DNA of 64,000 bases from Candidatus Bathyarchaeota archaeon (GTDB lineage Archaea > Thermoproteota > Bathyarchaeia > Bathyarchaeales > DTEX01), in contig JAGTRI010000004.1 in NCBI GenBank assembly GCA_018397065.1, positions 8,595 to 72,594 on the forward strand, read 5' to 3'. A program made the translations under genes and the position numbers. Positions within the stretch are counted from its first letter, which is position 1. Every line of letters starts with the position of its first letter. The notes beneath the pieces were generated by a model that saw only the letters and a list, made by a program, of their open reading frames with translations, ran no database searches and was not told the DNA's origin. Shown here piece after piece: positions 1-38,071 of the stretch.

Positions 1-146
1 CGTAAACTAAAATTCGGCAATGTGGAGTGTATCTTACATGAGAACTGACATTTCACAAACTCTAAATATGAATAGTAACCTAAATTGTTAACACATAATT
101 TTTTTGACACATGCTTACACGATTATGTAGATGAGTTGAAAGCCAA

Positions 147-1565
147 TTGCAAATCCGATTAAGGGTGGACTCATACGAGGCAGGCGTTGGAGCAGTAGGT
201 GGACTGTCAACTTTTCATAATAACTTGTATCCCAGACTTGTAAAAAGGGGTTTTGACATCAAAACCTTTTCTATGCGATTCAGCCCTGATCTTCCCACAA
301 GAGAAGAGTTTAAAGGAGTAATCATTAGGCGACCGTCAACCGATGTAGACTTGGATGTTGCCTATGCTTGGACCTACGATATTTTGCACCAGTACGGCAT
401 AAGAGTCGACTACTTGACGCCTTCGGAGATATATGTTGTCCCGAGATACTTTACTAACTTTGGCGCTGTTCCATCACCTTTCAGGATGGCAGAGGCAGAC
501 GTTTTCTCTCCACACGATTGGATGTCATATCTGAGAAGCGGATTGAACGCTTGGTTGCATCCAGACTTGGTTCAGGCAATTTTTATTCATTCAACTGAAC
601 CTGGCAGAATCGGCGGAATACAGCATTATAATCTAAATGGAACGTCCGACAAATTTGACTTGTCCGATTTTAGGTTGATGGCGAAGGAAGACTATGGCGC
701 CTCGTTCTACCAGGGGCTTCGGTTGATCCGTGACCTTGAATTCCCTTTGACTTTTAAAATCTTGCACAGGCTTTCCAACTCCGCTCTTTTTACTGTTAGC
801 CGAATCCATAGGAAAGAGTACCTTTTTGGGTTAAAAGCCCATGGAATGCGGTTTGGAGAGGTGGAGGACAGAGTTTTTGCTATTTACCATGGCGTTGACA
901 CCAGTGAGTATAGACCGTTGCCGAACATTGAGAAAAAAGGGTTCACCATAGGTTTCATTGGAAGATGCACACCTGTGAAGGGGATAGACGTTATACCTGA
1001 ACTTGCTGCGATTTTGGTTAAGAAGATTCCAGATGTGAAGTTTCATGTAGTAACTAAGACTGAACCGCAGAACTATTATTATAAGAATTTTGCAGAAAGA
1101 ATCCGAGATTTAGGTGTCAACAACACAGTAATTATTGACAACACATTCTATGTGGGCGAAGAAAAAATTAAGGTCATAAATTCATGGAACCTCACACTGG
1201 TACCCTCAAGATACGAACCTCAGGGGCAAGTGGACCTTGAATCCATGTCCTGTGGCGTTGTTCCAGCAGTAGGCATGGGCGGGCTTCGAGAAAAGGTTGT
1301 TGACGGATTCAATGGCATATGGATAAACCCTGATGATCTAAAAGAAACAGCGGAAAAAATATTTCAGTTTTATAAAGGAAATTACAATGGCAGAAGCCAA
1401 GATGAGATTGCTCGAAACTGCAGGGAATCCGCAGAAAAAATTTGGGACTGGGAGAAAAGAGCTGATGTGCATAAAGAAATTTACACCTATTTAACTGATG
1501 GCCGCGTCGATGAAATCTCCAAAGACTTGAATAGTCTTTTGTTACCTAAACCTTCAAAAATCTAG
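147..1565 (+). CDS. GT4 (GT-B fold) glycosyltransferase with an atypically long N-terminal domain
   Basis: Motifs HDW, HSTE, IYHGVD, FIGR...KG and PSRYEPQGQVDLESMSCG (E-X7-E). Confidence 0.85.
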   Translation: MQIRLRVDSYEAGVGAVGGLSTFHNNLYPRLVKRGFDIKTFSMRFSPDLPTREEFKGVIIRRPSTDVDLDVAYAWTYDILHQYGIRVDYLTPSEIYVVPRYFTNFGAVPSPFRMAEADVFSPHDWMSYLRSGLNAWLHPDLVQAIFIHSTEPGRIGGIQHYNLNGTSDKFDLSDFRLMAKEDYGASFYQGLRLIRDLEFPLTFKILHRLSNSALFTVSRIHRKEYLFGLKAHGMRFGEVEDRVFAIYHGVDTSEYRPLPNIEKKGFTIGFIGRCTPVKGIDVIPELAAILVKKIPDVKFHVVTKTEPQNYYYKNFAERIRDLGVNNTVIIDNTFYVGEEKIKVINSWNLTLVPSRYEPQGQVDLESMSCGVVPAVGMGGLREKVVDGFNGIWINPDDLKETAEKIFQFYKGNYNGRSQDEIARNCRESAEKIWDWEKRADVHKEIYTYLTDGRVDEISKDLNSLLLPKPSKI

Positions 1566-1625
1566 CATTTTTTAGGCATTTGACCGTAAAATGGCAATAA
1601 AGCTCTTAACACAAATCATCATAAT

Positions 1626-2813
1626 ATGAAGCGTGGCCACACAGAAATGAAAGTATGCATGTTAACCTGGGAGTTTCCTCCTAGAATCGTGGGAGGCATA
1701 GCTCGACACTGTTATGGCTTAACAAGGGCGCTGGTAAAACTAGGTCATGAAATACATGTTGTTACACTAGAGTTTCCCGGCGCTTCTGATTTTGAAGATG
1801 TGGAAGGCGTAAAGGTGCACCGCGTAAAGATTGAGCTTGGGCATCCTAACTTCATAACTTGGACCTTAATTTTTAATCATTTCATGGAAAAAAAGGCCGC
1901 TGCCTTAAGCTATCTCATTGACTTTGACATAATTCACGTGCACGATTGGTTAACAACTCCTTCGGGCATAACGTCAAAAAATTTTCTGAATAAGCCTATG
2001 GTTTGCACTGTTCACAGCACCGAAGTTGGTCGAGTACAACACCTAAGTAGCCCTGATTCCTACATGATTGACGGTTTAGAATGGTGGATGTTGTACGAGT
2101 CAAAGTCTGTGATAATATGCAGCAATTTCATGATGAAAGAAGTTGTCAGCCACTTTCACCTTCCGCCAGAAAAAGTAAGCATAATCCCCAACGCAATTGA
2201 CACTCATGAATATGCTTTTAATGTAGATAGGGAGGCTGTAAGAAAACGTTATGGAGTTATGCCTCACGAGAAGCTCGTTGTCTTCATTGGAAGATTGGTT
2301 CCTCAAAAAGGCGTGGAGTACCTAATCAATGCTGTACCGTTAATCGTAAGGAACCATGGGGGAACCAAGTTTCTCATAGCTGGAGACGGATGGTCCCGCA
2401 GTCATTTGGAAAGCATGGCAGCTGCAACTGGGTATGGAAACAAGATACGTTTCTTAGGCTTCATCTCAGATTCTGAACGCATAGAACTATTAAAGAGCGC
2501 TGATGTTTTAGTGATTCCCTCAATTTATGAACCATTCGGAATCGTCGCATTGGAGGGAATGGCAGCAGGCGTCCCAGTTGTCGCCTCAAATGTAGGAGGT
2601 CTCTCTGAAATCATTGAGCACGACCGAACTGGAATGCTTGCCTACTCGGAAAATTCCGAATCTATTGCTTGGTGTGTTAATAAGGTTTTATCTGACCAGG
2701 GATACGCTAATTGGATTATAGAAAACGCTAAAAAGAGGGTTAATGAAGTATATAGTTGGGAGTCTGTGGCTAGAAAGGTTTCAGAAGTATATGAAAAGAC
2801 GTGTGAGCGGTGA
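1626..2813 (+). CDS. GT4 glycosyltransferase (glycogen synthase-like)
   Basis: Motifs WEFPPRIVGGIARH, HVHDW, FIGRLVPQKG and PSIYEPFGIVALEGMAAG. Start may be the Met of MKVCML. Confidence 0.9.
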   Translation: MKRGHTEMKVCMLTWEFPPRIVGGIARHCYGLTRALVKLGHEIHVVTLEFPGASDFEDVEGVKVHRVKIELGHPNFITWTLIFNHFMEKKAAALSYLIDFDIIHVHDWLTTPSGITSKNFLNKPMVCTVHSTEVGRVQHLSSPDSYMIDGLEWWMLYESKSVIICSNFMMKEVVSHFHLPPEKVSIIPNAIDTHEYAFNVDREAVRKRYGVMPHEKLVVFIGRLVPQKGVEYLINAVPLIVRNHGGTKFLIAGDGWSRSHLESMAAATGYGNKIRFLGFISDSERIELLKSADVLVIPSIYEPFGIVALEGMAAGVPVVASNVGGLSEIIEHDRTGMLAYSENSESIAWCVNKVLSDQGYANWIIENAKKRVNEVYSWESVARKVSEVYEKTCER

Positions 2814-2819
2814 CGTGGA

Positions 2820-3077
2820 ATGGGTTTAAGGGGATACTCGATGCCTGACGAGATTTATTTTCTTTGCCTACTTCACAACATTGGCGCTATAAGCTCAGAG
2901 AAATCGTTATCTGTAGATGAAATTTCGCAGTGGACAGTTATGGATCCGCAGAAAGTAAAAGAAAATCTTGAAAAACTTATCAGCACACAGTATATACAAA
3001 AAACCTACAGAGATGGATCGGAAAGATATCATGTGACAATTAACGGAATTAGAAAAGTTCTAAGTATGTACAGCTAG
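2820..3077 (+). CDS. Small winged-helix protein
   Basis: 85 aa with a helix-turn-helix plus wing pattern ending RYHVTINGIRKV; co-oriented with the glycosyltransferases. Confidence 0.6.
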   Translation: MGLRGYSMPDEIYFLCLLHNIGAISSEKSLSVDEISQWTVMDPQKVKENLEKLISTQYIQKTYRDGSERYHVTINGIRKVLSMYS

Positions 3078-3165
3078 AACCTAAGCCCTAAACACAGAAC
3101 CAACCATTTTCCACATAACAGTAATAGGAACGTTCGCTTTATTACTGACCTCTCATAATATTATT

Positions 3166-3744
3166 TTGAAATTTATTACGCCACTTCAGGGGAAAAGCAT
3201 GGAAAAAATGTCTGAAACTAAAGCTGATATTCTCGAACTATTATGGGTAAATGATGCACCACTTAACTTTAAACAAATCACAGAAAAACTCGGTCTGAAA
3301 CCTCGCGCAGCAAACATGCATCTTTTAGGCTTGATGAAAGCCGGGTTCATCGCTAAAAACGCCAATAACGAATATACAATAACGCCTTCTGGTAGAGTAG
3401 CGCTTGGATTCCCATCAACCGACGAGAAACTTGCAAGAAAAATATTAAGCAAAACTGCGAAAGAAAAGGCTTTTTATTTTTACAAAGGAATTGGTCAACC
3501 TACAGACATCGAGGCTGACAGCCTAAATGATTTTTGTGAAAAACTTAGGACTTTGGACACAAAAATAATAGAGTTCCACACTGAAAGAGGAGATTTTGAA
3601 GCATGGGTCTCTTCTCTAGGAGACATTGAACTAGCCAAGCGGTTAAAGGTTATAAGAGGATCAAATTTGTCTGGCGAGTTACTTCGTAAAAAGACCTATG
3701 ACGCAGTGAAATCTAGATGCGATGAACTATCTAAAGCAAAATAG
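3166..3744 (+). CDS. Winged-helix regulator fused to a DUF5752-like domain
   Basis: N-terminal HTH (LNFKQITEKLGLKPRAANMHLLGLMKAGFI); C-terminal AFYFY...ADSLNDF...FHTERGDFEAWV...LGDIELA pattern. Confidence 0.7.
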   Translation: MKFITPLQGKSMEKMSETKADILELLWVNDAPLNFKQITEKLGLKPRAANMHLLGLMKAGFIAKNANNEYTITPSGRVALGFPSTDEKLARKILSKTAKEKAFYFYKGIGQPTDIEADSLNDFCEKLRTLDTKIIEFHTERGDFEAWVSSLGDIELAKRLKVIRGSNLSGELLRKKTYDAVKSRCDELSKAK

Positions 3745-3862
3745 GTTCCTTGCTCATCATTAAAGAAACACCCTTCATTACCCCTTATTATTTATATAAA
3801 AAGTCGAAGTAATCCTTTTTCAAAAAACTATTTACTCAATTTAATATTATGTGAGGATTTAG

Positions 3863-4900
3863 ATGATTGAAATTGATGGAAGCCAAAAAAGCGGCAGCGG
3901 AACAATACTTAGACTTTCCGTAGCTCTAGCTGCGATCACAAAAGAACCGCTGCATATTTTTAACATTCGCAAGAAAAGAAGAGATCCTGGACTTAGGCCT
4001 CAGCACCTAGAAGCTGTTCTGACAGCCACAAGGCTCTGTAATGCAACAATAAAAGGCGCCTCACTAGGTTCAGAAGAACTCTGGTTTGAACCTGATAAAA
4101 TTGTGGGTGGAAAAATAAAAGCTGAGATTGGAACTGCAGGAAGCATCCCAATGTTAATTTTAACAGTTTTACCTATGTGCATCTTTGCGCAGCAGCCCGT
4201 AAACCTTACGATTACAAAAGGAGGAACCGATGTCCTTCATTCTCCAACAATAAATTACATACGTTTCGTCTTACTTCCAACGTTGGAACAGATGGGCGTA
4301 AAATCAACACTTAAGGTCAACAAATATGGCTACTATCCAAAAGGCATGGGAGAAGTCACGTTAGAAGTTCAGCCTTGCACACAAATACTTCCATACAAGC
4401 GAACGGAATTTGGAAAAATCACAGAAGTAAAAGGCATCTCAGTCTGCACTTTCTTGGCTGACAGAAACGTGGCTGCGCGCCAAGCAAAAGAGGCGGAAAG
4501 ATTATTAGCACAACACGGTTATCACCCAAAAATTGAAGTAGTCAACGATTTTTCAAACCCGTTGCAGAAAGGAAGCTCTTTGGTCCTTTGGTCCTTAACG
4601 GACACTAACGTAATGTTAGGCGGCGATTCAATCGGCGAGATACAGAAACCAAGTGAAAAGGTCGCCTATGAAGCTGTAAAAAGCTTGCTGACTGAAATCC
4701 AAGCAAAAGCAACGGTTGATGTGCACTTAGCTGACATGCTTATACCATTCATAGCCTTAGCAGAGGGCGAATCAGAATATCTTACACGGATGCTAACTGA
4801 CCACATTGAATCAAACCTATGGCTCGCATCTACATTTCTCGGAGCCAAATTCAAAACCGAAAAACATAATGGATTATACAGAATAACAAAAACACAATAA
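3863..4900 (+). CDS. rtcA: RNA 3'-terminal phosphate cyclase
   Basis: MIEIDGS..SGSGTILR, PGLRPQHL, GTAGSI, GGTDV, GYYPKGMG and VDVHLADML (catalytic His). Confidence 0.95.
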   Translation: MIEIDGSQKSGSGTILRLSVALAAITKEPLHIFNIRKKRRDPGLRPQHLEAVLTATRLCNATIKGASLGSEELWFEPDKIVGGKIKAEIGTAGSIPMLILTVLPMCIFAQQPVNLTITKGGTDVLHSPTINYIRFVLLPTLEQMGVKSTLKVNKYGYYPKGMGEVTLEVQPCTQILPYKRTEFGKITEVKGISVCTFLADRNVAARQAKEAERLLAQHGYHPKIEVVNDFSNPLQKGSSLVLWSLTDTNVMLGGDSIGEIQKPSEKVAYEAVKSLLTEIQAKATVDVHLADMLIPFIALAEGESEYLTRMLTDHIESNLWLASTFLGAKFKTEKHNGLYRITKTQ

Positions 4901-4998
4901 AAAATACGCACCTCCAAAAAAGGCCTTCTCAACCAAAACGAAGCAAAATTGGATTAACCTGCACATAAACATTTTTAGCACCACCATTGAATCCATAG

Positions 4999-5140
4999 TT
5001 CCACAGTGTTTCTACAGAGCCTATATAAAGAAAAAATTCTGCGCATCCATGGAACAAACACAAAACAAGGCAAAAAAGATGACCGGACTATATATACTCT
5101 TCCCCCTAAACAACAAGCACATACAAAACAAGAAAAACAT
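4999..5140 (+). repeat. Dispersed non-coding repeat, copy A (inverted partner at ~37155-37299)
   Basis: TTCCACAGTGTTTCTACAGAGCCTATATAAAGAAAAAATTC...GACCGGACTATATATACTCTTCCCCCTAAACAACA aligns by eye to the reverse complement of 37155-37299. Confidence 0.85.
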
Positions 5141-5294
5141 GTCAATAGGCCAGAAAAAACTGCACACACTAGTTTACACGGACTGGAAAAGCATAAACAG
5201 CCCAAATGAAGCAAACAATATTACTCAAACTATAACCTTAGGGTAGCACGAAAGACAGAGTTTATAAAAAAATAAAGCCACACAAGATGAATAA

Positions 5295-5771
5295 TTGATA
5301 ATAATAGACAAGGTGATGAATATTACTAAAAGCCATCCTTACATAAAGTATCCTGGAAATGTCCATTTCGAATGTAGCCTATGCGCCTTATGTTGCGGAG
5401 ACACTGAAACCAACGTTCGAAAAATTCTTTTACTTAAAAAAGAAGCTGAAGAAATTTCTAAAAAGACCCAGAGAGACATTGAAAGTTTCGCTGAAAAAAC
5501 TGATGATAAAGCGCCATATGTCTACGTGATGAAAAAAACTAAGAATAGTAAATGCGTGTTTTTAAAAGAAAAATTATGCACTATTTATGACATAAGACCT
5601 TTGATTTGCAAGTTTTACCCATTCAAGATCGACAACCTTGGAAATCAACATTATAGGTTTTCTTACACAAAAGAATGCCCAGGCATGGGAAAAGGTTCTC
5701 AACTTAAGAAAACATTTTTTAAAATCCTATTCTCCGAATTTATCACTTCAATGAAAAAGAACAATTCATAG
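5295..5771 (+). CDS. YkgJ-family cysteine-cluster (Fe-S/Zn) protein
   Basis: FECSLCALCC, CVFL...CTIYDIRPLICKFYPF and CPGMG. Confidence 0.85.
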   Translation: MIIIDKVMNITKSHPYIKYPGNVHFECSLCALCCGDTETNVRKILLLKKEAEEISKKTQRDIESFAEKTDDKAPYVYVMKKTKNSKCVFLKEKLCTIYDIRPLICKFYPFKIDNLGNQHYRFSYTKECPGMGKGSQLKKTFFKILFSEFITSMKKNNS

Positions 5772-5841
5772 AAAAAAATAATTAACTTTTTTAAGGGGCG
5801 CCTATGTCCCGCTTTATTTTTTTAAAAGAAGAATAAAACAC

Positions 5842-6789
5842 TTACAAATCCATGACAAAGAGGAGGCAGTCCACTAGCTCCTTGTATCTGTTTCTGATAG
5901 TTACCTCAGTTACCTTCGCAATTTCAGCTATCTCCCGTTGAGTTCTTCGTTCTCCAACTAAAACCGAAGCAATGTAACTTGCCGCCGCTGCAATACCCGT
6001 GGGTCCCCTGCCAGATGTTAGCTTAAGGTTACCAGCGGTCATAAGAATCTTGTTAGCAATCTCCTCAACCTTGCCCTGCATTGTCAACTGATTTGAAAAC
6101 TTCGACACATACTGGTTTGCCCTAACTGGAGGAATAAGATAATCAAGTTCCTTAACCAAAAAGCGATAGCTCCTGCCAACCTCTCTTTTACTGACATTGG
6201 AAGCCTTAGAAATTTCCTCAAGAGTTCTCGCAAGCCCGCATTGTCTGCATGCAATGTATACAGAAGCTGCGCTAATTCCCTGAATTGACCGTCCGCGAAT
6301 AAGCCTTTCCTTTACAGCCTTCCTATATATGACTGAAGCTGTCTCAAAAATGCTTTTAGGCAACGAAAGATTGTTCGCTATCTTCGTGATCTCAGAAAGA
6401 GCAAACGCAAGATTCCGCTCCATAGCATCGGAAACCCTGATCCTCCTCTGCCACTTCCTTAGCCGGTAAATTTGAGCCTTCTGACCTGCAGAAAACTTTT
6501 TTCCGTAAATATCCCGGTCGTGCCAGTCAATCATCGTAGAAAGTCCCTTATCATGAATCGTAAAAGTTACTGGAGCGCCAGTTCGAGCTCTTTTTTCTCT
6601 TTGCTCAGTGTCAAAAGCCCGCCATTCAGGCCCTTGATCCGTCAATTTCATGTCAAGGACGAATCCACAGTCCATGCACACAACTTCTGCAGACTCATAA
6701 TCTCTCATAAGCCTAGTTCCGCCGCATTCAGTGCATCGCTGAATGTCTCTAAGACCAGGTGAAACAGATGCTTTTTTATTTTCACTCAT
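5842..6789 (-). CDS. tfb: Transcription initiation factor IIB
   Basis: Zn ribbon CTECG...CMDCG, GPEWRAF, two cyclin repeats, [23 protein letters not shown]. Confidence 0.98.
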
Positions 6790-7043
6790 CTTTTTCCACT
6801 CCTTTTTTTCTGTTTTGAAAGAGGCATAAAGTAAAGAAAACTTCCCACAATACTTTGATGGTCACCCGTTTTAACATCAACTAAGACATAAGGCGATACA
6901 GTTGGTCCAATAACGTCAAATATTTTCCCCACTTGCCTATTTTTTTTGTCCATCACTGTTACGCCGATTCTAGGAGTTTTTTCAGCTTTTATTACCGCTT
7001 TACCACTCGGACTGATATGAACGACTCGTCCGATTCTTTTCAA
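6786..7043 (-). CDS. gar1: H/ACA RNP protein Gar1
   Basis: [16 protein letters not shown] motif; conserved gar1-tfb adjacency. Confidence 0.9.
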
Positions 7044-7113
7044 ACCTTCAACTCCTCAAAAGACGTGAACGAAAAAACCCATATTTGTTATATAAACATT
7101 TCTCATTTCGAAT

Positions 7114-7398
7114 TCAGACCATAAGTCTCGAAATTTCATGAGCTACTTCAATGATAATCCTGTTCTTAGCCTTCGTTTTCTTTACAAGAACTAAACCGCT
7201 CTTTTTCCATGAAAAACGAGGATACGCTGCGTCCATTACTACTTTATATGAAAATCCAAGATTTGCAACTGCTTTTTCAAGCACACCCAAGTTTGGGGAT
7301 GGCTTTGAGAGCTTTTTAGGCACCTTCCTTCCCTTAGACCTTGTTTTTGTAGAATCAAAATAGACAGGCCATAAAACAACCTCATCTCGTCTCCGCAT
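7114..7398 (-). CDS. srp19: Signal recognition particle protein SRP19
   Basis: VLWPVYFDSTKTRSKGRKVPK...YPR motif. Confidence 0.95.
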   Translation of the reverse strand: MRRRDEVVLWPVYFDSTKTRSKGRKVPKKLSKPSPNLGVLEKAVANLGFSYKVVMDAAYPRFSWKKSGLVLVKKTKAKNRIIIEVAHEISRLMV

Positions 7399-7458
7399 AT
7401 TCCAGATTCACCATCATTAATATTCAAAAGACAACTCAAAAGGTGCGAAAAACTAACT

Positions 7459-7845
7459 CTATTGCGAGACTAGAATTCCGTTAAGAACCCCTGATTGCCC
7501 AGGTCTGGACGTTACCCGAACAGTTCCCATAGAAGTTTCAAGAAGCGTTCCTTTTGTGATAACACCCCTTCTGTCATAATCCACGTTAGATGGATTCTTA
7601 AGAACCCTTAATATTTCAACCCTCTTGGTTTCTCCTGTTGAAGAATCAGAGACATTCACATATTTTGTACTCACGAGACGAACTTTTAAGGTTCCTCCTC
7701 TTCCTCTTTCTTTCTTTGTCTCGTGTTCATTAATAGTAGTCATAATGGGAAAGTTTCCTTTCTCAAACCTTCGTTTACCTCTGTATGCTTTCTTTTTACC
7801 GCCTGAACGTTTCCTTTTATGTAGATTGCCATGCCAAGATGACAT
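7459..7845 (-). CDS. rps8e: 30S ribosomal protein S8e
   Basis: RKRSGG, RGRGG, RRGVITKGT and VTSRPGQSGVLNG. Confidence 0.97.
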   Translation of the reverse strand: MSSWHGNLHKRKRSGGKKKAYRGKRRFEKGNFPIMTTINEHETKKERGRGGTLKVRLVSTKYVNVSDSSTGETKRVEILRVLKNPSNVDYDRRGVITKGTLLETSMGTVRVTSRPGQSGVLNGILVSQ

Positions 7846-7913
7846 TCTTAATTCTCCTTAATAAAAAGGAAGGAACGCTCAGACTAATATAAATTTAGCG
7901 GATACAAAATGTC

Positions 7914-8522
7914 TTAACTCTCGTTAAAATTGTATTCTTCATCAGAACTAAGAGGCTTTTTCATCAATTCATTAAAGGTTCTTTTGAGTTGGCGTTTCAT
8001 TATCTTGATGTCACGGCTTAAACCAAAATAATCCGAAAAAAACTCCGTTACACGAAGAATCTTATTCCTACCATCACTTTTACGTTCAATAAGCCCCATT
8101 TCAACCAGCTGCCTAATGTGACCATAGGCGTGGGCTCCTCGAGCATCAATAACCTGCTTTTGAATTATAGGCTGCCTATAGGCAATGTACGCAAGAGTCC
8201 TAAGCGGACCATCAGACAACAAAGGCCTTACCGCAAGTTTCCTTACTTTAGCTGAAAACTCAGTTTTTAATTGAAGAACGAACCGTTCATCTTCAAGTTC
8301 TAACACCTCAAGCGGAGTTTCTAATTGCCTATATTTTTCTATTAAAGCTCTAGCTAGCTGTTGAACGCGTTTCTTCGACCGGCTTCCAACAATATACCCT
8401 AACGTTTTTGTGTCAAGGGGACGACCAGCTACATAAAGAGCAGCTTCAATTAATGCCAAATCTTTTTTGAACTTTTCCTCTTGATCTTGAGCAGTTACTT
8501 CTTCAGTTTTATTCGACATCAT
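7914..8522 (-). CDS. scpB: SMC-Scp complex subunit ScpB
   Basis: IEAALYVAGRPL, LRTLAYIAYRQPI, TEFFSDYFGL; in operon with smc. Confidence 0.93.
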   Translation of the reverse strand: MMSNKTEEVTAQDQEEKFKKDLALIEAALYVAGRPLDTKTLGYIVGSRSKKRVQQLARALIEKYRQLETPLEVLELEDERFVLQLKTEFSAKVRKLAVRPLLSDGPLRTLAYIAYRQPIIQKQVIDARGAHAYGHIRQLVEMGLIERKSDGRNKILRVTEFFSDYFGLSRDIKIMKRQLKRTFNELMKKPLSSDEEYNFNES

Positions 8523-9193
8523 TGAGCCCCATTAATTGTTACAAAGACCTCGTCAGAATTTTCCTCCTGCCATAGGGTTACCCTATTTTTTTGAGCCAAA
8601 AAAAGCAAAACTATAAAACTTCGAATTTGCTCAAGTTTTCTTAAGCCATGTACAAGGTTCGAGAAAGTAACGAGTTTTCCCTCATCTGCAAGCGTAATTA
8701 TTTTTTTCATCAGCCTTTCCATCTGCTCTTCCATCTCTATTAGATAAGCACTGATAGTAGGAATTACACCAGCTGGAGGAATGATATCAGTACTTGTAGA
8801 TGCCTTTAAGGCAAAGAGCTTCTCAGTTTTCAGAGCGTTATCTAATGCCTCAAGCAAGTTTTGAATTGTTGTTGTCGTTAACTCGTATCGTAAAGGAAGA
8901 ACTAGTGGTGGAGGAATAAAATCAGACTGTAGCTTTGGAGCCAAAGGAGCCTTCTCAAGTTCAAGAAGCATCTCAGACTTCATAAGGTACACTGTGGAAG
9001 ACGAACCAAGCGCCATTCCTGAAGCTCTGAAATCAATCTCGTTTCTTTTTTCCATCTCATCAAGAAACGACAAAAGAAGAAAAGACAAATTAATGTCCCA
9101 TGGATTCAACTTTTCCAACAATTGCAAGTCAAAAAGAATGTTCCATGGTGGACGAAAATAAAATGGCTTGTTAACATTTATCTCTGTCATCAT
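8519..9193 (-). CDS. scpA: Kleisin ScpA
   Basis: LNPWDINL N-terminus and FIVLLFLAQ...LWQEE C-terminal winged helix; lies between smc and scpB. Confidence 0.9.
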   Translation of the reverse strand: MMTEINVNKPFYFRPPWNILFDLQLLEKLNPWDINLSFLLLSFLDEMEKRNEIDFRASGMALGSSSTVYLMKSEMLLELEKAPLAPKLQSDFIPPPLVLPLRYELTTTTIQNLLEALDNALKTEKLFALKASTSTDIIPPAGVIPTISAYLIEMEEQMERLMKKIITLADEGKLVTFSNLVHGLRKLEQIRSFIVLLFLAQKNRVTLWQEENSDEVFVTINGAQ

Positions 9194-12100
9194 GTAGCCC
9201 CCTTAAATGTAGTTGTTACAACGTGCGATACCCCCTCAAGGCCATAGACTCCGTATATTCTGTCGGCTTTACTGACCATTTCAGGTTTTAACGTTATGAC
9301 GACAAACTGCGATTTTTTGGCTTCTTCCGAAAGCAACTCACCTAGTCTCTCTACATTAGAAGCATCTAAGTGAGCGTCAATTTCATCAAACAAATAAAAT
9401 GAGGCTGGAGTAAACTCCTGCAAAGCAAACAAGAAGGCAACAGCAGAGACTGACCGTTCTCCGCTGCTAGCACCACTTACAAGGATAGGAGGCTTTCCCA
9501 CAAATTGAACTATCATATCTACACCTCCCGCAAATGGGTCCTCAGGATTCTCAAGTTTCAATGCAGCACTTCCTCCATCAGTGAGCTTTGAAAAGTATCT
9601 GTCAATTCTCTCGTTAATTTTGTTGAAAGCCTCCATGAAAGCATTGTATTTCTTTCTCTCAATCTCCTCAATAAATTCAACAATCGCCATTCTTTCTTTT
9701 TCCAACTCATTCATCCGGATTGAAAGTTCCTTGTACTTTGTGATCTGATCCTCATACTGCGCCTGTGCAAGTTGATTAACAGCGCCTATACGTTCCAACT
9801 CGAGCTTCATAATTTTTAACGAAGTCTCAATATCTTGAATGCCTCTTGAAGGAACAACAAAAGGTTCTTCGTATCCTAAATTCCTAAGTTGATCAAGTTG
9901 TCTTTCAACTAGAAGGTTTAAAGTTTGATTGTTCAGCCTTAATTCGTCAAGTAACTTGTCAGACTGTTCGTATTCGGCTTCAAGAACCCTTAGTTTATTA
10001 TCTATCTCATCAATCTGCATTGTGTACCTCTGCGATTCACTTTTAATAGTTAATAACGATTTGGAAAGATTGTCTTTAACAACCTCAAGTTCTCTAATTT
10101 TATTCTGAATTGTCTCCTTTTCAATGTTAAGCTTGTCAACTTCTTGCTCCAAAATTGTTATTTGACTCGACGCCTTATCCCTTTGAATATAGGCATTCTT
10201 TAATTCAACCTTTAATGTAGATTCTAATCTTAAGTGGAGAGAAGAAAATTGATTTTCCACTTGACTTAGTCTTTGTCTAAGCGTAATAAGTTCAGTTCCC
10301 AATTCCTCACGTTTTTGTTCTCTTTCTTGAGCCGTTGAAAAGTCAACATTTTGCTTGAGACGTTCAAGTTCATCTTTTAGTTTATTCTCTTCCAAAGAAT
10401 ATCTTTTGATTGCGTCGTCAAAACACCCTATTTGCGCTTTCTCCTCTTCAAGACTGCTCTGTAAGGATGCTATATTTTCTTCTATACGCATAATGTTTCT
10501 TTCCGTTTCATGAATGCTTTTTCGTGTTCCCTCAATTTCAGAACCAAGTTTTCCCAAGGTTTCAGCTGAAGTAGATATTTCGTTCTGTATGTTCACGATT
10601 TCTTTTTCCAACTCAGTAATATCGAGTTCTCTTTTATTCAAATTCGCCTTCAACATGGTTACAGCCTTATCAAGATCTTTTAAGGCTGACTCACTAGGCA
10701 CGAAAGATGAAAAATCAATAGGCGCCCGATAAAATCCACTTTCAACACCACCTCCTGCTTCATAAAGATCGCCTGCCTTTGTAACAGAGCGGTATCCAGC
10801 TTGGGAGATCGTTAGCGCTGTTTTCTCGTCATCTGCTAAAAAAGTATCTCCTAAAACAAATAAAACAGCAGCCTCATGCATTTGATCATACTTTACGAAA
10901 GACGTAACCTTATCTTTTTTTCCTTCAATCTTCGGAAAATCATTCATTTTTATGCCTGATAATCCTTTAAGCGGAATAATCTTTATTCTTCCAAGCTTAA
11001 GTCGACGCAGAGTTTCGACACATATAAAGGCAGTCTCTAAGCTATCAACCACGAGCGCATTAAGCCATCCAGCAGCTGCAGCTTCAACAGCACGTTCATA
11101 ACCCTTTTCGATGTTTATCAGATTTTTTAAACGACCTATAACACCTTTGATAATGCCTTCGTCAGACGATTTCTCTATATACTTTAGGGCGTTCTCTTCT
11201 GTCGTGAACTTGTTAACTAGCTCCTTACGGGTCTCAAATTCAACAAGAGCTTCCCTGGCAACATCAGCAATTTTCTCTGCCTCTTTAATTTCTAACTCTA
11301 AAACCTCTTTTTTCTCTATTTTTTTCTTAAGCGTTTTCCGTAAGATAGTTAATTGTTCTGTTCGTTCTTTGCGTATGTTTTCTAAATCCCGCAAAGACTT
11401 TTCAAGCCTATTTAATGCATTGGCATAATCGACTTTTCTCTCCTGAAGGTTTCCAAGTCTTTCTGAATAAATGTTAACTTTAGATTCGGATTCTGCTCGT
11501 TGGCTGCGAAGCATTATTACTTCTCTGTGTATATGTTCAATTTGGTTTTCAATTTCACGTAACTTTTTTGTAATCTCACTTATTCCTGCTCTGACTTTCA
11601 ATGTTTCCTCATTTAGTACTTCAAAAGCTGACTGCTTCTCAGTCATTTCCTTTTTTAACGAATCCCTAATTGGAGCAAGTTCACCAATTTTATTTTTAAC
11701 ACTTTCAATTTCCTTAGTTAGAGATTCGATCTGTTGTACAGCATTTTGTTTTGTTCTTGCAAGGTTGTCTAAACTGGCTTTATTAGACGTAATTTTTGTT
11801 GAAAGTTCAACCAGCTTTGATCTTAAGTCTCCTATTTCCATTTGGATCTGGAAAAGCTTCGTTTGGTTAGCCTCAGCCTCTTCAAAGCCAAGTTTTCTCC
11901 ACTCTACCTCAATTTCATGACGTTTTGACTGTAAAGTTTCTCTCTGAGTTCGTATTGATTGTACCTTTTTTTCTAAAACACTAATATGCGCATTCAGTTC
12001 GCTAATCTTTTTTTGGTTAGTTGTTATCTCATAAGATAACTTAGCTGCTTCAAAACGCCTAATTTCACTTTGAATAAAATTGTGACGTAAAAGATCATTT

Positions 12101-12735
12101 CTTTCTCTCTCTAGAGCCTCGATTCTGTTCTGGACTTCGCTTACTTGCCCCATCGCTGTTTTGATTGAAATATCTGCTGCTTTTAGTTTTTCATCTGCTT
12201 CAGCCTTTTCTGCATCATATGTAGCGATACCAATCATATCCTCAATAATTTTTCTACGCTCAACAGGCGAAATCTCAGCTAACCTCGTAAGCGTACCCTG
12301 AAGAACAACATTATGTCCATATGGACTAATGCCTGCCATTGCAAGAATCTCCATAGCATAGGCTCTAGAGACCCTTCGACCGTTAATTCTGAAAATACTT
12401 TGTCCTTCCTGATCGATTTCTCTTGAGAGAGTAACCGTTGCAGTATCCGTTGGCAAACGGTTATCCGAATTATCAAACTGAATAACGACTTTGGCGCTAT
12501 TTTTCTTCCTTGAATCTGAGTTAGGGCTACCGCTGAAAATAAGTTTTGAAAAGTTTTCTGCCCTAAGTCTTCTTGAACTAAGTTCACCTAAACAAAAAAG
12601 AACAGCATCAATTATGTTGGTTTTTCCACTCCCGTTTGGTCCGGTTATTGCCGTAAATCCCTTATCAAATACCAATGTCGTTTTTTTACCAAACGTTTTA
12701 AAACCGTTGACCTCAATTTTCTTTATAAAAGGCAT
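9190..12735 (-). CDS. smc: Chromosome segregation protein SMC
   Basis: Walker A GPNGSGKTN, long coiled coils, hinge (GVIGRL...GRIKIIPL), Walker B FYLFDEIDAHLD. Confidence 0.97.
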   Translation of the reverse strand: MPFIKKIEVNGFKTFGKKTTLVFDKGFTAITGPNGSGKTNIIDAVLFCLGELSSRRLRAENFSKLIFSGSPNSDSRKKNSAKVVIQFDNSDNRLPTDTATVTLSREIDQEGQSIFRINGRRVSRAYAMEILAMAGISPYGHNVVLQGTLTRLAEISPVERRKIIEDMIGIATYDAEKAEADEKLKAADISIKTAMGQVSEVQNRIEALERERNDLLRHNFIQSEIRRFEAAKLSYEITTNQKKISELNAHISVLEKKVQSIRTQRETLQSKRHEIEVEWRKLGFEEAEANQTKLFQIQMEIGDLRSKLVELSTKITSNKASLDNLARTKQNAVQQIESLTKEIESVKNKIGELAPIRDSLKKEMTEKQSAFEVLNEETLKVRAGISEITKKLREIENQIEHIHREVIMLRSQRAESESKVNIYSERLGNLQERKVDYANALNRLEKSLRDLENIRKERTEQLTILRKTLKKKIEKKEVLELEIKEAEKIADVAREALVEFETRKELVNKFTTEENALKYIEKSSDEGIIKGVIGRLKNLINIEKGYERAVEAAAAGWLNALVVDSLETAFICVETLRRLKLGRIKIIPLKGLSGIKMNDFPKIEGKKDKVTSFVKYDQMHEAAVLFVLGDTFLADDEKTALTISQAGYRSVTKAGDLYEAGGGVESGFYRAPIDFSSFVPSESALKDLDKAVTMLKANLNKRELDITELEKEIVNIQNEISTSAETLGKLGSEIEGTRKSIHETERNIMRIEENIASLQSSLEEEKAQIGCFDDAIKRYSLEENKLKDELERLKQNVDFSTAQEREQKREELGTELITLRQRLSQVENQFSSLHLRLESTLKVELKNAYIQRDKASSQITILEQEVDKLNIEKETIQNKIRELEVVKDNLSKSLLTIKSESQRYTMQIDEIDNKLRVLEAEYEQSDKLLDELRLNNQTLNLLVERQLDQLRNLGYEEPFVVPSRGIQDIETSLKIMKLELERIGAVNQLAQAQYEDQITKYKELSIRMNELEKERMAIVEFIEEIERKKYNAFMEAFNKINERIDRYFSKLTDGGSAALKLENPEDPFAGGVDMIVQFVGKPPILVSGASSGERSVSAVAFLFALQEFTPASFYLFDEIDAHLDASNVERLGELLSEEAKKSQFVVITLKPEMVSKADRIYGVYGLEGVSHVVTTTFKGAT

Positions 12736-12781
12736 TTTTATTCCTCAACAAATCAACTTTTGAGATTTTTCATCCTTTTTC

Positions 12782-13306: not shown

Positions 13307-13560
13307 AATTTCACCTCTCTTGCACCCGAATACAAAAATAATGTTGGAATTGTGCTCATCGCGTATTCTAGCTAAGTCCACCTCCAAGTTCTCAGAATCT
13401 TTTATTTCTTACCCTATCTAAGCGTTTGCCTTGAAGAAACAAAAAGTTGAAAATCCAAATATTTGTTTCTAATACGCATGTATATATGCAATTATGAAAT
13501 TGTAAAAATGTAAATACCCTAAATTTAATCATGTAACAATGAATATGAGGTAAAAGATGT

Positions 13561-13959: not shown

Positions 13960-13978
13960 CGGTGCCTAGAGGATACAT

Positions 13979-15352: not shown

Positions 15353-15499
15353 GGTATTAAAATGCTTCGACGCATATATTGACTATTTTTGGTCATTGAT
15401 ATTATTTTTTTATAATTTTTGACCGAAAAATATATATTCAAAATGAAAATTTTAATGAAGATAATTAAACTAAAAATGCAAATTAGGAAACCTGAAAAC

Positions 15500-16417: not shown

Positions 16418-16486
16418 GCATTCCACATATGTTTTCATAATACTTATATAATTCAGCAAGGTTCAAACTTAAAGGATTCCATTAAG

Positions 16487-17068: not shown

Positions 17069-17249
17069 AAAAATACATTCTGCAATTTCATTTTATCTGT
17101 TTTGTCTTTCTTATGGTTATCAGCTATAGGTTATTGATAAACAATAAGATAAACCATCCTAATTCTTTAAAAATAACTTAGTAATATTGTTTTAGACTAG
17201 GCTCTTAAGAAAGAAAAAATAACTCCGAGTTACTTGGTGAAACTTTAAC

Positions 17250-18959: not shown

Positions 18960-18962
18960 AAA

Positions 18963-36154: not shown

Positions 36155-37048
36155 TTACTTTAGGATTATGATTGAGCCGTATCCTACGATTAGGTCTTTT
36201 CCTCCGCCGGTGTCGTGGCTTGTCGCATATTTTAGGAGTTTAGCTTCTTTTGCGCCTAGTTCTTTAGCTCCAACTATCATCGTGGCGACTGGAAGGGAAC
36301 CGCACATTGTGTAGCCTTTTTCTTGAACTGTGTTAACCAGTTTTTCCGCGTCTAATTTTAGGATGATGTCTATGATGGATTTGTCTGCGTCGTTCATCCA
36401 CTTTAAAGCTTTTTCGAATGGTCTCATTCCGACAGGCGCATACCCGTAGTTTGGACCATAATGAATGAAGTCTGTGCTTCCTAGAATGACTGTGTCTTTT
36501 TGTCGGTCTTTTACTGCTTTTGCAATTGCTTTGCCAACGTTTTCGCACATTACGTAGTCGCTGTAGCCTACAGTTATGGGTACGATTTTGAAGTTTCCGT
36601 TGTAGATGTATTGGAGAAATGGAAGTTGGATCTCGATTGAGTGCTCTTGGTCGTGTGCCTCCGGGTTTATGTCTATGTACTCAGAATTTTTTGCAATGGC
36701 TTTTGCAAGTTCTGAGTCCACTTCCACGTCTCCTAGTGGCATCTTCCAGACTCCTTCAAGCATCGTGTTGAAGCCTGGGTAGCCCCTGTGATTTACTCCT
36801 ATGATTACGAAGGTTTCTGGCGTTCCATCTTTTGCTATGCTGTGGTAGGCGTGTCCGGCGATAGGTCCTGAGTAGATGAGTCCAGCGTGGGGAACTACTG
36901 CTCCAACTATGCGTCTTTCTCCGTGCTCTTGGATTTTAGGGAGTTCTCCGACTCCGTGTTTTGAGGTGAAACACCATTCTATTTCTTCTTGTTCTTCTTT
37001 GCTGTTGAAGGGGTGAAACCCCCAAGCTGAAGGTCTTCTAACCCTCAT
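36155..37048 (-). CDS. MEMO1-family protein (AmmeMemoRadiSam system protein B)
   Basis: PHAGLIYSG, GVNH, EHSIEIQLPFLQ, STDFIHYG, TMCG and VGYGS. Confidence 0.92.
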   Translation of the reverse strand: MRVRRPSAWGFHPFNSKEEQEEIEWCFTSKHGVGELPKIQEHGERRIVGAVVPHAGLIYSGPIAGHAYHSIAKDGTPETFVIIGVNHRGYPGFNTMLEGVWKMPLGDVEVDSELAKAIAKNSEYIDINPEAHDQEHSIEIQLPFLQYIYNGNFKIVPITVGYSDYVMCENVGKAIAKAVKDRQKDTVILGSTDFIHYGPNYGYAPVGMRPFEKALKWMNDADKSIIDIILKLDAEKLVNTVQEKGYTMCGSLPVATMIVGAKELGAKEAKLLKYATSHDTGGGKDLIVGYGSIIILK

Positions 37049-37154: not shown

Positions 37155-37299
37155 TTGTTTCTTTCTTTTTTGTGTGTTGTTGAGGGAGGAGGGGTTATAT
37201 ATAGTCTGGTTAGCTTTCTTGTCCATTTTTTCACGTTCGTGCTTATTCCGTGCACTTTGAATTTTTTTCTTTATATAGGCTTTATGGAAACATGTGGAA
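37155..37299 (-). repeat. Dispersed non-coding repeat, copy B (inverted relative to 4999-5140)
   Basis: Minus strand reads TTCCACATGTTTCCATAAAGCCTATATAAAGAAAAAAATTC...AACCAGACTATATATAACCCCTCCTCCCTCAACAACA. Confidence 0.85.
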
Positions 37300-37405
37300 G
37301 ACTTTGTTTTGTAGATGGCTTTTTATGTGATTGGTTTTTGTATGTTATATACTATGGTTTATTGTATTTCAGCGGTTGGTAGGGTTTTGATTTGGAGGCA
37401 GAAGT

Positions 37406-38071
37406 TTGATCAAGTTTGTTATAGGTGAGGACATAAAGGCTGCGTTTCCTGATTTGATAATTTTGGTTGCACAAATCAGCGATGTTAATGTCCGATCATC
37501 TGATTTGGAGCTTGAGGAGTTCAAGAAGCTCGTAATTGGAGAAACGCAACGGTTTTATGATGCTGAAACGCTTAAGGATAGGCCTGTGCTAAGGGCTTAC
37601 CGTGACTTCTTTTGGAGAATCAAGGTTGACCCTACAAAGGTTCGTCCTGCAGCTGAGGCTCTGATTCGAAGAATTGTTGTTGGGAACCCGTTGCCTCGTA
37701 TAAACACGTTTGTTGACGCCTACAATCTTGCTTCAGTTAAGACGGAGGTCGCCGTTGCCGCGTTCGATGCTGACAGGCTGCGTGGAGATTTAAGGCTGCG
37801 ATTCTCAGAAAAGGGTGAAAAGTTCCTCGGAATTGGAATGAGTAAGCCCTTGCAGCTTCAAGACGGCGAAATCGTGGTTCAGGACGACGAGAAACTTGTC
37901 GCCGTTTACCCTTACCGGGACGCTGAAGACTCGAAGGTCACGGAAGCCACCAAAAATGTCGTGTTGCTGTTTTGCGGTGTTCCAGGTATAAGTGAAGAAA
38001 AACTGTTGGAAGCAAAGAATGTTACAGTTGATTACGTGACAAAGTTTTGTGGTGGAACCGTAAAAGTTTAG
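37406..38071 (+). CDS. Stand-alone B3/B4 domain protein (tRNA-editing-like)
   Basis: AYRDFFWRIKVDPTKVRPAAEALIRR, INTFVDAYNLAS, AFDAD, YPYRD. Confidence 0.88.
   Translation: MIKFVIGEDIKAAFPDLIILVAQISDVNVRSSDLELEEFKKLVIGETQRFYDAETLKDRPVLRAYRDFFWRIKVDPTKVRPAAEALIRRIVVGNPLPRINTFVDAYNLASVKTEVAVAAFDADRLRGDLRLRFSEKGEKFLGIGMSKPLQLQDGEIVVQDDEKLVAVYPYRDAEDSKVTEATKNVVLLFCGVPGISEEKLLEAKNVTVDYVTKFCGGTVKV

Follow-up and report, generated by a model that had tools for sequence, protein, structure and literature searches.

A shared element in two intergenic regions

Bathyarchaeia are abundant and uncultured archaea, and to our knowledge their promoters, regulators and genome dynamics have not been studied experimentally. 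In the window, by which we mean the whole 64-kb stretch of DNA that was analysed (64,000 nucleotides), two intergenic regions between unrelated genes had been predicted to share a set of ordered, non-coding blocks. The locus therefore raises the question of what this shared sequence is, how far it extends beyond the window, and what keeps it in place.

Pairwise alignment of the two sequences, hereafter copies A and B, confirmed that the blocks follow the same order in both, namely TTCCACAG.., CCTATATAAAGAAAAAA, CA.GGAA.AA.CAC, AAAG.T.ACC.GACTATATATA, a C-rich tract and AACAACA. Both stretches proved to be as first described, except that their limits had been drawn slightly too generously on the right. 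Copy A occupies positions 4990..5123 of the plus strand (nhmmer E=1e-26, profile positions 1-131; E=1.1e-26 with model R1). Copy B lies at 37170..37308 (approximate right and left family limits; nhmmer E=8e-27) on the minus strand, inverted relative to copy A as had been claimed, and has positional orthologues in the sister species G001 (L006) and G005 (L021).

Checks that included Pfam upheld the identities proposed for the flanking genes. Upstream of copy A lies an RNA 3'-terminal phosphate cyclase gene (rtcA, 3863..4900, plus strand; Pfam RTC, 4.7e-74), and downstream of it a CxxCxxCC (YkgJ-like) gene (5295..5771, plus strand; Pfam PF03692, 1e-10). Copy B is followed by a Memo-like gene (36155..37048, minus strand; Pfam Memo, 1.6e-69), while a B3/4-domain gene lies upstream of it in divergent orientation (37406..38071, plus strand; Pfam B3_4, 9.9e-30). 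Both genes downstream of a window copy possess a box of their own. The CxxCxxCC gene has a proximal A/T-rich box near 5262-5280, as read from a three-species leader alignment, and the Memo-like gene has a TATA box about 40 nt before its ATG that was read in all six genomes compared.

In DNA run X1, most bins have a depth of about 14.5, but the bin 4670-5336 reaches 43.5, and loose ends occur at 4990 and 5040. We attribute the raised depth and the loose ends at copy A to the other copies of the repeat.

The element belongs to a dispersed, lineage-specific family

A profile search built from both copies, which had been suggested as a check, was run against the genome that carries the window (G000, a hot-spring archaeon; 1,202,015 bases in 46 contigs, 72% complete). 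It retrieved 25 places at E <= 8.5e-4, 15 of them at E <= 1.9e-12, and more in relatives. Since a profile of only two copies was enough to retrieve these 25 places, the similarity of copies A and B is far above chance. Furthermore, model R1 found 27 matches in G000, 43 in G001 and 44 in G005, and the G000 copies are spread over at least 15 contigs. With 25-27 matches in its own genome and 43-44 in each of the two sister species, the genome-wide dispersed cis-element family put forward in the original prediction does exist.

Apart from metagenome contigs, the full element occurred in just three closely related species of the genus, and elsewhere in the taxonomic family we found weak half-element matches only. 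Blocks resembling the second half of the element are present in the more distant genomes G002, G003 and G013. A search of viral contigs gave zero matches, and at gathering score Rfam 15 had 0 matches in the 64-kb window. Findings that would have spoken against the prediction, namely two hits only, a lack of conservation in relatives or a match to an Rfam family, were thus not obtained. Among the titles listed by literature searches on dispersed archaeal TATA-box repeats, on intergenic repeats or MITEs of Bathyarchaeia and on archaeal promoter-bearing MITEs, none described the element. The family is a lineage-specific, dispersed, intergenic DNA element of about 130 bp that is limited to one subclade.

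The unit consists of two tandem modules

Alignment of 30 copies from three genomes (alignment A1) revealed that the unit is made of two tandem modules, M1 and M2, that point in the same direction. M1 comprises three TCCACAG-type direct repeats, a TATA box, a run of six or seven A and a CACGGAA box, in that order, and M2 comprises a block containing GCTGACC, a second TATA box, a C-rich tract and a CACAGAA box. Conservation in A1 is block-wise, with spacers rich in indels. Two near-invariant TATA blocks stand out, each followed at a promoter-like distance by the same CAC(G/A)GAA box. The M2 core is the most conserved block of the family, and M2 is more conserved than the spacer. The forward strand is composed of 40% A, 27% C, 15% G and 19% T. 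All 30 copies carry a run of at least five A at the first TATA box (TATA1), whereas a forward-strand run of at least five T occurs in one of the 30.

In copy A, the three direct repeats of M1, in columns conserved in the 30 copies, lie at 4991-4998, 4999-5006 and 5010-5017. They are followed by TATA box 1, CTATATAAAG, and an A6 run (5021..5036), which fall in near-invariant columns of A1 and read as oligo-T on the minus strand. The first CA(Y)GGAA box (5048..5055), 27 bp after the first T of TATA1, is the proposed initiator or start region 1. The M2 core spans 5076..5096 and consists of the AAAGATGACCGGAC block and TATA box 2, CTATATATA (TATA2, 5088-5096). The C-rich tract, AACAACA and a second CAC(A)-type box, GCACATA (5117-5123), then follow within 5097..5123, the proposed start region 2. 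All of these features are on the plus strand. The corresponding parts of copy B were read from its sequence on the minus strand: TATA1 at 37278-37269, GCACGGAA at 37253-37246 and TATA2 at 37204-37196. The two direct CTATATA cores reported for each copy are indeed there, with starts separated by 67 bp in copy A (5021 and 5088) and by 74 bp in copy B (37278 and 37204). On the other hand, A1 favors reading the TTCC...GGAA sequences, which had been taken for an inverted pair, as members of a direct CAC(A/G)G series that occurs three times upstream of TATA1, once downstream of TATA1 and once downstream of TATA2.

Spacing was parsed in 33 copies, out of 50 unique full copies. Measured from the first T of the TATA box, the CAC(G/A)GAA box begins after 23-27 bp in M1 (box found in 26 of the 33 parsed copies) and after 25-31 bp in M2 (27 of 33).

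The genome of the window also contains truncated copies with M1 only or M2 only, and M1-only copies persist in two or three species. The M1-only copy on contig C8 of this genome and the one beside rtcA in G001 each have a full-length counterpart in another genome. Both correspond to a deletion between the two CAC(G/A)GAA boxes that leaves the distance from TATA1 to its box intact. The other three M1-only copies of G000 end at an identical point of the profile. M1-only copies on the plus strand face M2-only copies on the minus strand on contigs C8 and C2, an arrangement that could reflect inversion or breakage between the modules. This explanation was rejected for C8: at this place G001 keeps a full element whereas G000 retains just M1, and in each of the three genomes the M2-only copy stands by itself.

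Copies lie between functionally unrelated genes in either orientation

All 25 copies in the genome of the window are intergenic, as judged from crude ORF calls. Their orientation relative to the flanking genes is random, and some lie between convergent gene ends. The downstream gene is co-oriented with the element for 13 of these 25 copies (after correction for rRNA) and for 12 of the 23 classifiable metagenome copies. For about half of the copies, what lies ahead is the 3' end of a convergent gene, a tRNA or the 23S rRNA. The flanking genes are housekeeping genes of unrelated function, and include those for CdvA, diphthamide synthase, NAD kinase, Memo, peptidases, a RadA-like protein, MtrH, ferredoxin, thioredoxin and HycI. 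Two M2-only copies both precede genes for GFO/IDH/MocA oxidoreductases.

We also considered whether the element might belong to a larger autonomous one, and rejected this because the genes beside truncated copies read as housekeeping from their translations (HdrB-like, radical-SAM, sulfatase, MFS transporter, PurA, GNAT and aldo-keto reductase). A small ORF starting at the ATGG of M2 was likewise discarded, as the ATG is absent from 7 of the 30 copies and the predicted product varies between 5 and 108 aa. The C-rich tract also has indels whose lengths are not divisible by three.

The element appears to be under selection and its copies exchange sequence

The original prediction held that the blocks are selected rather than the product of a recent duplication, and copy number, block-wise conservation and consensus identity all agree with it. 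Per-genome consensus sequences are 94%, 95% and 89% identical between species, compared with 72% identity at the four-fold degenerate sites of the flanking genes (1,931 sites). The element thus appears to be kept by selection, its consensus being conserved well above the neutral rate. The contrast of 86% versus 53% obtained for the block columns is partly circular because these columns are defined by their own conservation.

Individual copies behave differently from the consensus. None of the five pairs of positional orthologues are nearest relatives, and copies cluster by genome, with 7 label changes where shuffled labels gave 13.1 on average, and no value as low in 200 shuffles. Copies of the element exchange sequence among themselves.

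Gene order was compared around 18 elements of G001 and G005 for which both flanks could be mapped. Twelve of them join flanks from two different places in G000, and six are collinear. In the joined cases, the upstream flank comes from an element copy of G000 ten times and from an element-free place on contig C14 twice, and the downstream flank always comes from a different G000 copy. An automated junction count returned 9 broken and 3 collinear junctions with the element, versus 0 broken and 43 collinear junctions without it at the same loci. Elements coincide with synteny breakpoints, and crossovers between copies swap upstream and downstream flanks. The element places most gene-order changes between the three species at base-pair resolution.

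Relatives that lack the element (G002, G003 and G004) have another dispersed repeat, composed of paired palindromic 11-mers, which occupies the same slot in two of the three slots compared. The existence of this second family, distributed in complementary fashion over the same slots, suggests turnover of a cis-element and protein pair.

A candidate tandem promoter and recombination joint

Among the functions listed in the original prediction, tandem TBP sites fit the element best. By sequence spacing alone, the geometry of a core promoter fits twice per unit. We consider it quite possible, if somewhat short of probable, that the element is a cassette acting at the DNA level as a tandem core promoter with factor-binding sites, and that it also serves as the main recombination joint of the lineage. 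Each module would bind TBP/TFB, together with one or more further factors at the flanking repeats, and would start rightward transcription into whatever lies downstream. About half of the copies would yield a sense leader and the others a 3'-antisense or short orphan transcript, and the A-run may act as an oligo-T stop for leftward transcription. We infer protein binding, promoter activity and its direction, as well as terminator activity, from the sequence of the element.

Some observations weigh against such a cassette. TATA1 by itself would not assign a direction, as its reverse strand offers a box that is at least as good. In some copies, a T-run lies about 10-20 nt from the proposed second start, so that some products would be very short. 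Because only about half of the copies are co-oriented and the neighbours in the window have proximal A/T-rich boxes of their own, a promoter role for protein-coding genes is not general. A promoter model built from regions upstream of crude ORF calls was uninformative, showing no positional peak. Nine sequencing runs, one of them clearly RNA, were available as contigs; over positions 1-20000 of the window, the pieces listed for runs X1, X5, X7 and X9 include no RNA contig across the element, a result that speaks neither for nor against its transcription. The region downstream of the copy on contig C1 folds well and is conserved in 35 of 41 relatives. We rejected it as a structured non-coding RNA, as the opposite strand turned out to encode a tRNA(CAU) there, in a gene with two introns, and it is therefore of no use as evidence for an RNA gene driven by the element.

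A bolder extension, which we regard as speculative and rather unlikely, is that the copies are portable transcription-unit junctions. Each would combine a one-way oligo-T stop with a tandem promoter bound by a lineage-specific factor, and the host would keep them because recombination between copies could cut and rejoin gene blocks while sparing their expression signals. The repeat of G002-G004 would then belong to the same system, its binding protein having changed specificity. Such junctions would be an archaeal, promoter-based counterpart of integron or BIME-type recombination joints. If the copies are functional junctions and not passengers, compact archaeal genomes would have in them a new means of staying plastic while keeping expression intact. 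The family supplies about 110 aligned natural variants of the candidate tandem promoter and operator.

Alternative explanations

Selfish spread within one subclade of a non-autonomous mobile element of the MITE, Correia or BOX-like kind, with promoter-like boxes that are incidental or tolerated, is, in our view, an unlikely explanation. The element shares with MITEs a size of about 130 bp, a non-coding sequence, 25-44 copies per genome and an intergenic location. Its restriction to three close species and metagenome contigs, its random orientation relative to genes, even between convergent gene ends, and its truncated M1-only and M2-only forms would all be expected of a mobile repeat, and known bacterial repeats of similar size carry promoters (Correia; PMC10969869). 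Moreover, rtcA lies directly before a gene aligned to the M48 peptidase gene of G000 in G002, G003 and G004, with no element between them, and both flanks, separated in G000, carry the element there, indicating that these sites were gained. However, no terminal inverted repeats were found in the six copies examined, and no transposase or integrase was detected among 21 flanking proteins scanned against Pfam, in agreement with what had been noted for the window. An inverted-repeat scan of the six copies and their flanks paired only the two TATA boxes within the element; unrelated A/T-rich arms lay outside it in two copies, and two copies had none. Neither a target duplication nor a clean empty site could be defined: in the outgroup genomes G002, G003, G004 and G006, the flanks of five sites (copies A and B, and those on contigs C6, C43 and C13) are non-adjacent or only a single flank was found, and the rtcA-peptidase intergenic DNA of G002-G004 is too diverged to define the element borders. 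The housekeeping genes beside truncated copies and the lack of matches in viral contigs also argue against mobility, as does a consensus that is conserved above the neutral rate and decays block-wise instead of uniformly. A decayed MITE, one of the options raised originally, is for these reasons a poor fit. Rather unlikely too, in our estimation, is an architectural or boundary site that binds a protein without transcription of its own, whether a lineage-specific DNA-binding, chromatin, SMC or condensin-type factor or a decoy for TBP/TFB. Placement independent of orientation would suit such a site, as would short direct repeats and a partly palindromic block that are conserved as DNA with no RNA structure; the different paired-palindrome unit of sister genomes, found at the same place in two of three slots compared, looks like binding-site turnover. 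Against it, no candidate protein was identified, and a TATA box with a box at a fixed distance, present twice, is more specific to promoters.

The remaining readings fare worse. A small non-coding RNA gene, in which M1 would be the promoter of an unstructured RNA of about 100 nt containing M2, whose CCUCC-like tract could pair with purine-rich ribosome-binding sites, seems improbable to us. Its appeal is that the whole of M2 is downstream of the first proposed start, that conservation in M2 exceeds that in the spacer, and that the forward strand is generally free of T-runs. Yet RNAalifold on 30 copies returned 0 consensus pairs for either strand, and a possible GGTCA/TGACC hairpin has a left arm that varies without compensation, hence no covariation. 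The option of a structured small RNA gene is unsupported on this basis. In addition, the product would have no conserved end, M1-only copies have survived in two or three species despite losing all of the M2 product, M2 occurs without M1 both in M2-only copies and in the M2-like modules of outgroups, and no Rfam family matched: at E <= 1, the 19 loci with other copies gave only an LSU rRNA and one chance match. Considerably harder to defend is a regulon whose genes, lying downstream of the copies, would have the element as their common operator and promoter. Similar upstream sequence precedes 13 co-oriented genes, and the two oxidoreductase genes behind M2-only copies would agree with common control, but about half of the copies point at a convergent 3' end, a tRNA or the 23S rRNA, the flanking genes have unrelated functions, and flanks are freely exchanged between species. 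A replication origin or an Orc1/Cdc6-binding (ORB-like) element, also among the options raised at the outset, is extremely unlikely. The TTCC-containing repeats loosely recall ORB cores. A mini-ORB is described as 13 bp with an invariant TTCC and GAA in one 13-mer (PMC1904270), whereas the repeats of the element have TTCC with no GAA at that spacing, and its roughly 40 dispersed copies are unclustered over many contigs.

Comparison with known repeats and promoters

The tandem promoter and recombination cassette that we favor resembles several known systems in part. Correia elements of Neisseria are described as MITEs that have terminal inverted repeats and depend on mobilisation in trans (PMC10969869). 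They share with the present family a size of about 100-150 bp, many intergenic copies, two promoters and a protein-binding site (both only predicted here) and a link to rearrangement; an effect on neighbours according to orientation would be a further likeness. They differ from it in their terminal inverted repeats and transposase partner, neither of which was found here, and in having boxes of the sigma-70 type, those of the present element being of the archaeal TATA type. Putative mobile or reused promoters have been reported as highly similar promoter-like sequences before non-homologous genes, within and between related genomes (PMC3575422). Our element likewise places similar promoter-like sequence before non-homologous genes, but only about half of its copies are upstream of a co-oriented gene, and it is a fixed two-module cassette instead of a single promoter.

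BOX elements of pneumococcus are modular, dispersed, intergenic and palindromic, and fold as hairpins. REP/BIME sequences of enterobacteria are described as palindromic dispersed intergenic repeats (PMC2817692). Both resemble the present element in being modular with partial forms, and serve as protein-binding sites and recombination substrates. Unlike these palindromic repeats, which form RNA or DNA hairpins, the element has no consensus fold on either strand. Archaeal MITEs are listed for Sulfolobus, Halobacterium and Haloquadratum (PMC10969869). These are also small, non-coding, multicopy sequences in archaeal intergenic DNA, but they are defined by inverted termini and a parent IS, neither of which was found here in six copies and 21 flanking proteins, respectively.

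The archaeal core promoter is composed of a BRE, a TATA box and an initiator. The element resembles this arrangement in part, and does so twice, with an 8-bp TATA box and a conserved box about 25-30 bp downstream. It departs from it in that a BRE-like A-rich run is absent directly upstream of either TATA box, on either strand, whereas our reading of upstream regions found an AAAAAG-type, A-rich, BRE-like run before the box of most tRNA genes in the same genome. In our reading, the element shares its CTATATAT box with one tRNA-Asp gene of G000, where an A-rich block is located 9 nt upstream, as in M2 (AAGAAAG).

A dispersed intergenic family

The original prediction described a conserved non-coding element recurring in inverted orientation, and pairwise alignment bore this out. 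Copy A (4990..5123, +), between rtcA and a CxxCxxCC gene, and copy B (37170..37308, -), between B3/4-domain and Memo genes, carry an identical block order: TTCCACAG-type repeats, CCTATATAAAGAAAAAA, a CA.GGAA box, an AAAG.T.ACC.GAC block directly abutting CTATATATA, a C-rich tract and AACAACA. The spacers between the blocks differ by indels. A profile built from these two copies alone detected 25 places in their own genome (G000; 1.2 Mb, 46 contigs, 72% complete) at E <= 8.5e-4, and all 25 were kept at E < 1e-6 by the iterated profile. They comprise 17 full units, five copies with only the upstream module (M1) and three with only the downstream module (M2); two of the 25 lie inside the window.

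In the DNA metagenome run X1, contig depth was 43.5 over window positions 4670-5336 versus about 14.5 in most other bins, with loose ends at 4990 and 5040 whose consensus resembles other family copies. Hence, that metagenome contains the repeat in abundance.

Two modules in the same direction

Alignment of 30 full copies from three genomes revealed that each unit contains two modules pointing in the same direction and separated by a variable spacer. In M1, three TCCACAG-type direct repeats precede a TATA box (TATA1) that hardly varies and carries a run of six or seven A; a GCACGGAA box follows after about 12 variable bases. M2 contains ATGG.CA..AAAGCTGACC.GAC, then a second, invariant TATA box (TATA2) and a C-rich tract followed by CAACAACA and the GCACAGAA box. 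The CAC(G/A)GAA box lies 23-27 bp from the first T of the TATA box in M1 and 25-31 bp in M2; these distances come from a regular expression able to parse 33 of the 50 unique full copies, 26 of which yielded the M1 box and 27 the M2 box. TATA1 and TATA2 usually stand 69-79 bp from each other. The element's forward strand is A/C-rich, and runs of at least five T occur on it in 1 of the 30 aligned copies, versus 30 of 30 on the reverse strand.

The spacer after TATA1 falls into two subtypes, each present in more than one genome. The TGCGCATCCA.GGAAC subtype unites copy A, C12:62286, C11:21946 (both G000 contigs) and locus L061 of sister species G005 in a clade with 92% SH-aLRT support, while the TCAA..TGCACGGAA subtype is the commoner one and includes copy B.

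For two M1-only copies, other genomes offered a full-length counterpart for comparison. In both, a deletion between the two homologous CAC(G/A)GAA boxes joins TATA1, at its usual distance, to the DNA following M2; hence M1 and M2 are paralogous in their downstream part. The remaining three M1-only copies of G000 terminate at an identical profile position. An alternative origin, by inversion with breaks between the modules, was ruled out for contig C8 by the box-to-box deletion.

Distribution and gain of sites

Of 41 relatives' genomes searched by BLASTN, three contained the element, namely G000 and the sister species G001 and G005, all of one genus. A sequence-only covariance model gave 27, 43 and 44 matches in G000, G001 and G005, respectively, and elsewhere only weak M2-like matches (G002, 10; G003, 7; G004, 2; G009, 2; G013, 1; G041, 1), with no match in the other 38 of 47 family genomes. 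The M1 21-mer occurred among genome contigs in three Bathyarchaeia MAG records only (11 stretches), and the M2 19-mer in 33 metagenome stretches. Between G000, G001 and G005 the flanks share 83-88% identity; against the outgroup relatives G002-G004 and G006 the figure is 67-77%. Together, the presence pattern and flank identity indicate that the full M1+M2 unit marks one subclade. The M2 module is the older.

In G002-G004, rtcA is directly followed, with no element between, by a gene aligning with the M48 peptidase gene of G000. In G000, the rtcA and peptidase genes each border their own element; therefore, sites were gained in the subclade.

A second dispersed unit is carried by G002, G003 and G004, where its terminal motif had 32, 23 and 14 matches, respectively, versus none in G000 and G001. 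This intergenic unit of about 50 bp (seen at loci L022, L025, L090, L091, L093, L074 and L075) contains two copies of a palindromic 11-mer (TTG-N5-CAA type, the core varying between units) spaced by about 23 bp, and has a CAGACAGG-type end (CAAA(A/T)CAGA(C/T)AGG-type) after them; it often forms tandem arrays of 2-5. Its distribution is complementary to that of the M1+M2 family. Arrays fill M1+M2 slots upstream of the Memo gene (G002 and G003) and the riboflavin-kinase gene (G002-G004); a third slot compared, downstream of rtcA, has no second unit in the outgroups. Furthermore, in G002 and G003 the second unit directly precedes M2-like modules.

Selection, exchange and recombination joints

Four-fold degenerate sites of flanking genes were 72% identical (20 comparisons, 1,931 sites), and the per-genome consensus sequences of the element 94%, 95% and 89% identical. 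Across five pairs of positional orthologues, conserved columns were 86% identical (402/467) versus 53% (138/261) for the remaining columns, a partly circular comparison since columns were picked by conservation. A copy's closest relative is not its positional orthologue: copy B, for instance, ranks 28th of 29 for its G005 counterpart. On a tree of weak resolution, copies cluster by genome, needing 7 label changes where shuffled labels averaged 13.1 and none of 200 shuffles gave so low a count; element subtypes are also shared between genomes. These comparisons point to purifying selection on the blocks and sequence exchange among copies.

Mapping G001 and G005 element flanks onto G000 matched both flanks of 18 copies. 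Six were collinear with a G000 copy; in the other 12, the up-flank maps to one G000 place and the down-flank belongs to a different G000 copy. The up-flank came from another element copy in ten of these, and in two from contig C14, element-free in G000. In one such case, the up-flank of B runs into the DNA downstream of A; in another, the up-flank of A meets the DNA downstream of the C6 copy. Joins were always up-to-down. Counted automatically over these loci, junctions with an element were broken in 9 cases and collinear in 3, versus 0 broken and 43 collinear element-free junctions (Fisher p = 3e-8, an overstated value, as loci were chosen for containing elements and related genomes are not independent). 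In the two hybrid elements studied closely, one crossover lay near TATA1 and the other near TATA2. Since these are different conserved blocks, homologous exchange in the longest identical stretches fits better than one fixed site.

Upstream of the copy B orthologue, about 1 kb of G005 (L021:496-1500) has no match in G000; it lies between a stretch matching the C6-copy up-flank and the element, and may have been inserted or may be lacking from the incomplete G000 assembly.

Genomic context

All 25 copies in G000 are intergenic and flanked by unrelated housekeeping genes. The four neighbour arrangements are about equally frequent, and the next downstream gene is co-oriented for 13 of 25 copies (excluding one apparent gene inside the 23S rRNA gene, on the opposite strand) and for 12 of 23 classifiable copies on metagenome contigs. 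Furthermore, the CxxCxxCC and Memo genes each have their own proximal A/T-rich box, that of Memo being seen, on reading the upstream regions, in all six genomes compared, element-free ones included. Thus, the element is not a general promoter of adjacent protein-coding genes.

Between copy A and the CxxCxxCC gene, non-coding positions 5140-5290 contain short blocks kept in G000, G001 and G005, e.g. around CAGTTTACAC and TATAACCTTAGG, which may be leader or regulatory sequence; a related CTTAGGGAT stands just before the Memo start codon.

The C1 copy and its G001 and G005 counterparts point at the 3' end of a single-copy tRNA gene with anticodon CAU (L045:639-759, +; contig C1 about 96038-96158), matched in 35 of 41 relatives. 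It has two introns, of 18 nt in the anticodon loop and 30 nt in the T region. ARAGORN and a 31-kb Rfam search missed this tRNA, which came up, at 36.2 bits, only when 201 bases were searched alone. The copy at C3:41984-42115 (+) is aimed at the 3' end of 23S rRNA, about 100 nt away; this 3' part (L049:1015-1701, -; C3 42214-42900) reaches the limit of the sequence analysed, and the contig ends at 43055.

Candidate function and rival explanations

We hold the descriptive claims taken together (family, selection, exchange among copies, breakpoint association) with high confidence. Our best reading of the mechanism, which we put at somewhat below an even chance, is that the element works at the DNA level, as a cassette in which two core promoters stand in tandem, flanked by repeats that bind factors. 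The forward direction would be favoured by the same box at promoter distance after both TATA boxes, a forward strand free of T-runs in all but one aligned copy, deletion derivatives that keep the geometry, and one tRNA-Asp promoter of G000 that, as read, resembles M2. Against tandem promoters stand the absence of an adjacent A-rich BRE, a TATA1 that is also a good box on the reverse strand, and an orientation that is random relative to neighbouring genes. That orientation would suit a non-firing architectural site, which we consider unlikely; the repeated box spacing is more specific to promoters. Slightly less unlikely is a passenger mobile element: sites were gained in the subclade, but the element departs from the MITE definition in its termini, no terminal inverted repeats being present in the six copies scanned, which rules out a MITE by its ends, and it was not found in the viral contigs searched. 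A/T-rich inverted arms of 8-11 nt lie just outside the element at C43 (L014:1478-1485/1627-1634) and C23 (L011:1425-1435/1583-1593) and are absent from the other four copies tested; they are probably due to chance in A/T-rich DNA.

A small RNA gene would have to be unstructured, as RNAalifold found zero consensus pairs on either strand. Rfam gave no match at gathering score in the window, and none to the element at E <= 1 around 19 other copies; no tRNA adjoins most copies. We regard such a gene as improbable. A conserved micro-ORF was ruled out, ATG being absent from 7 of 30 copies and lengths ranging from 5 to 108 aa. The promoter of a regulon appears very improbable, the neighbours being unrelated housekeeping genes. 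An ORB is scarcely credible: PMC1904270 describes a 13-mer marked by TTCC and GAA, which is absent from the element.

Our literature search found no description of the M1+M2 element. Its closest analogues are bacterial: promoter-bearing Correia elements (PMC10969869), reused or 'mobile' promoters (PMC3575422) and modular BOX or BIME repeats. It resembles them in behaviour but uses archaeal TATA-type boxes.
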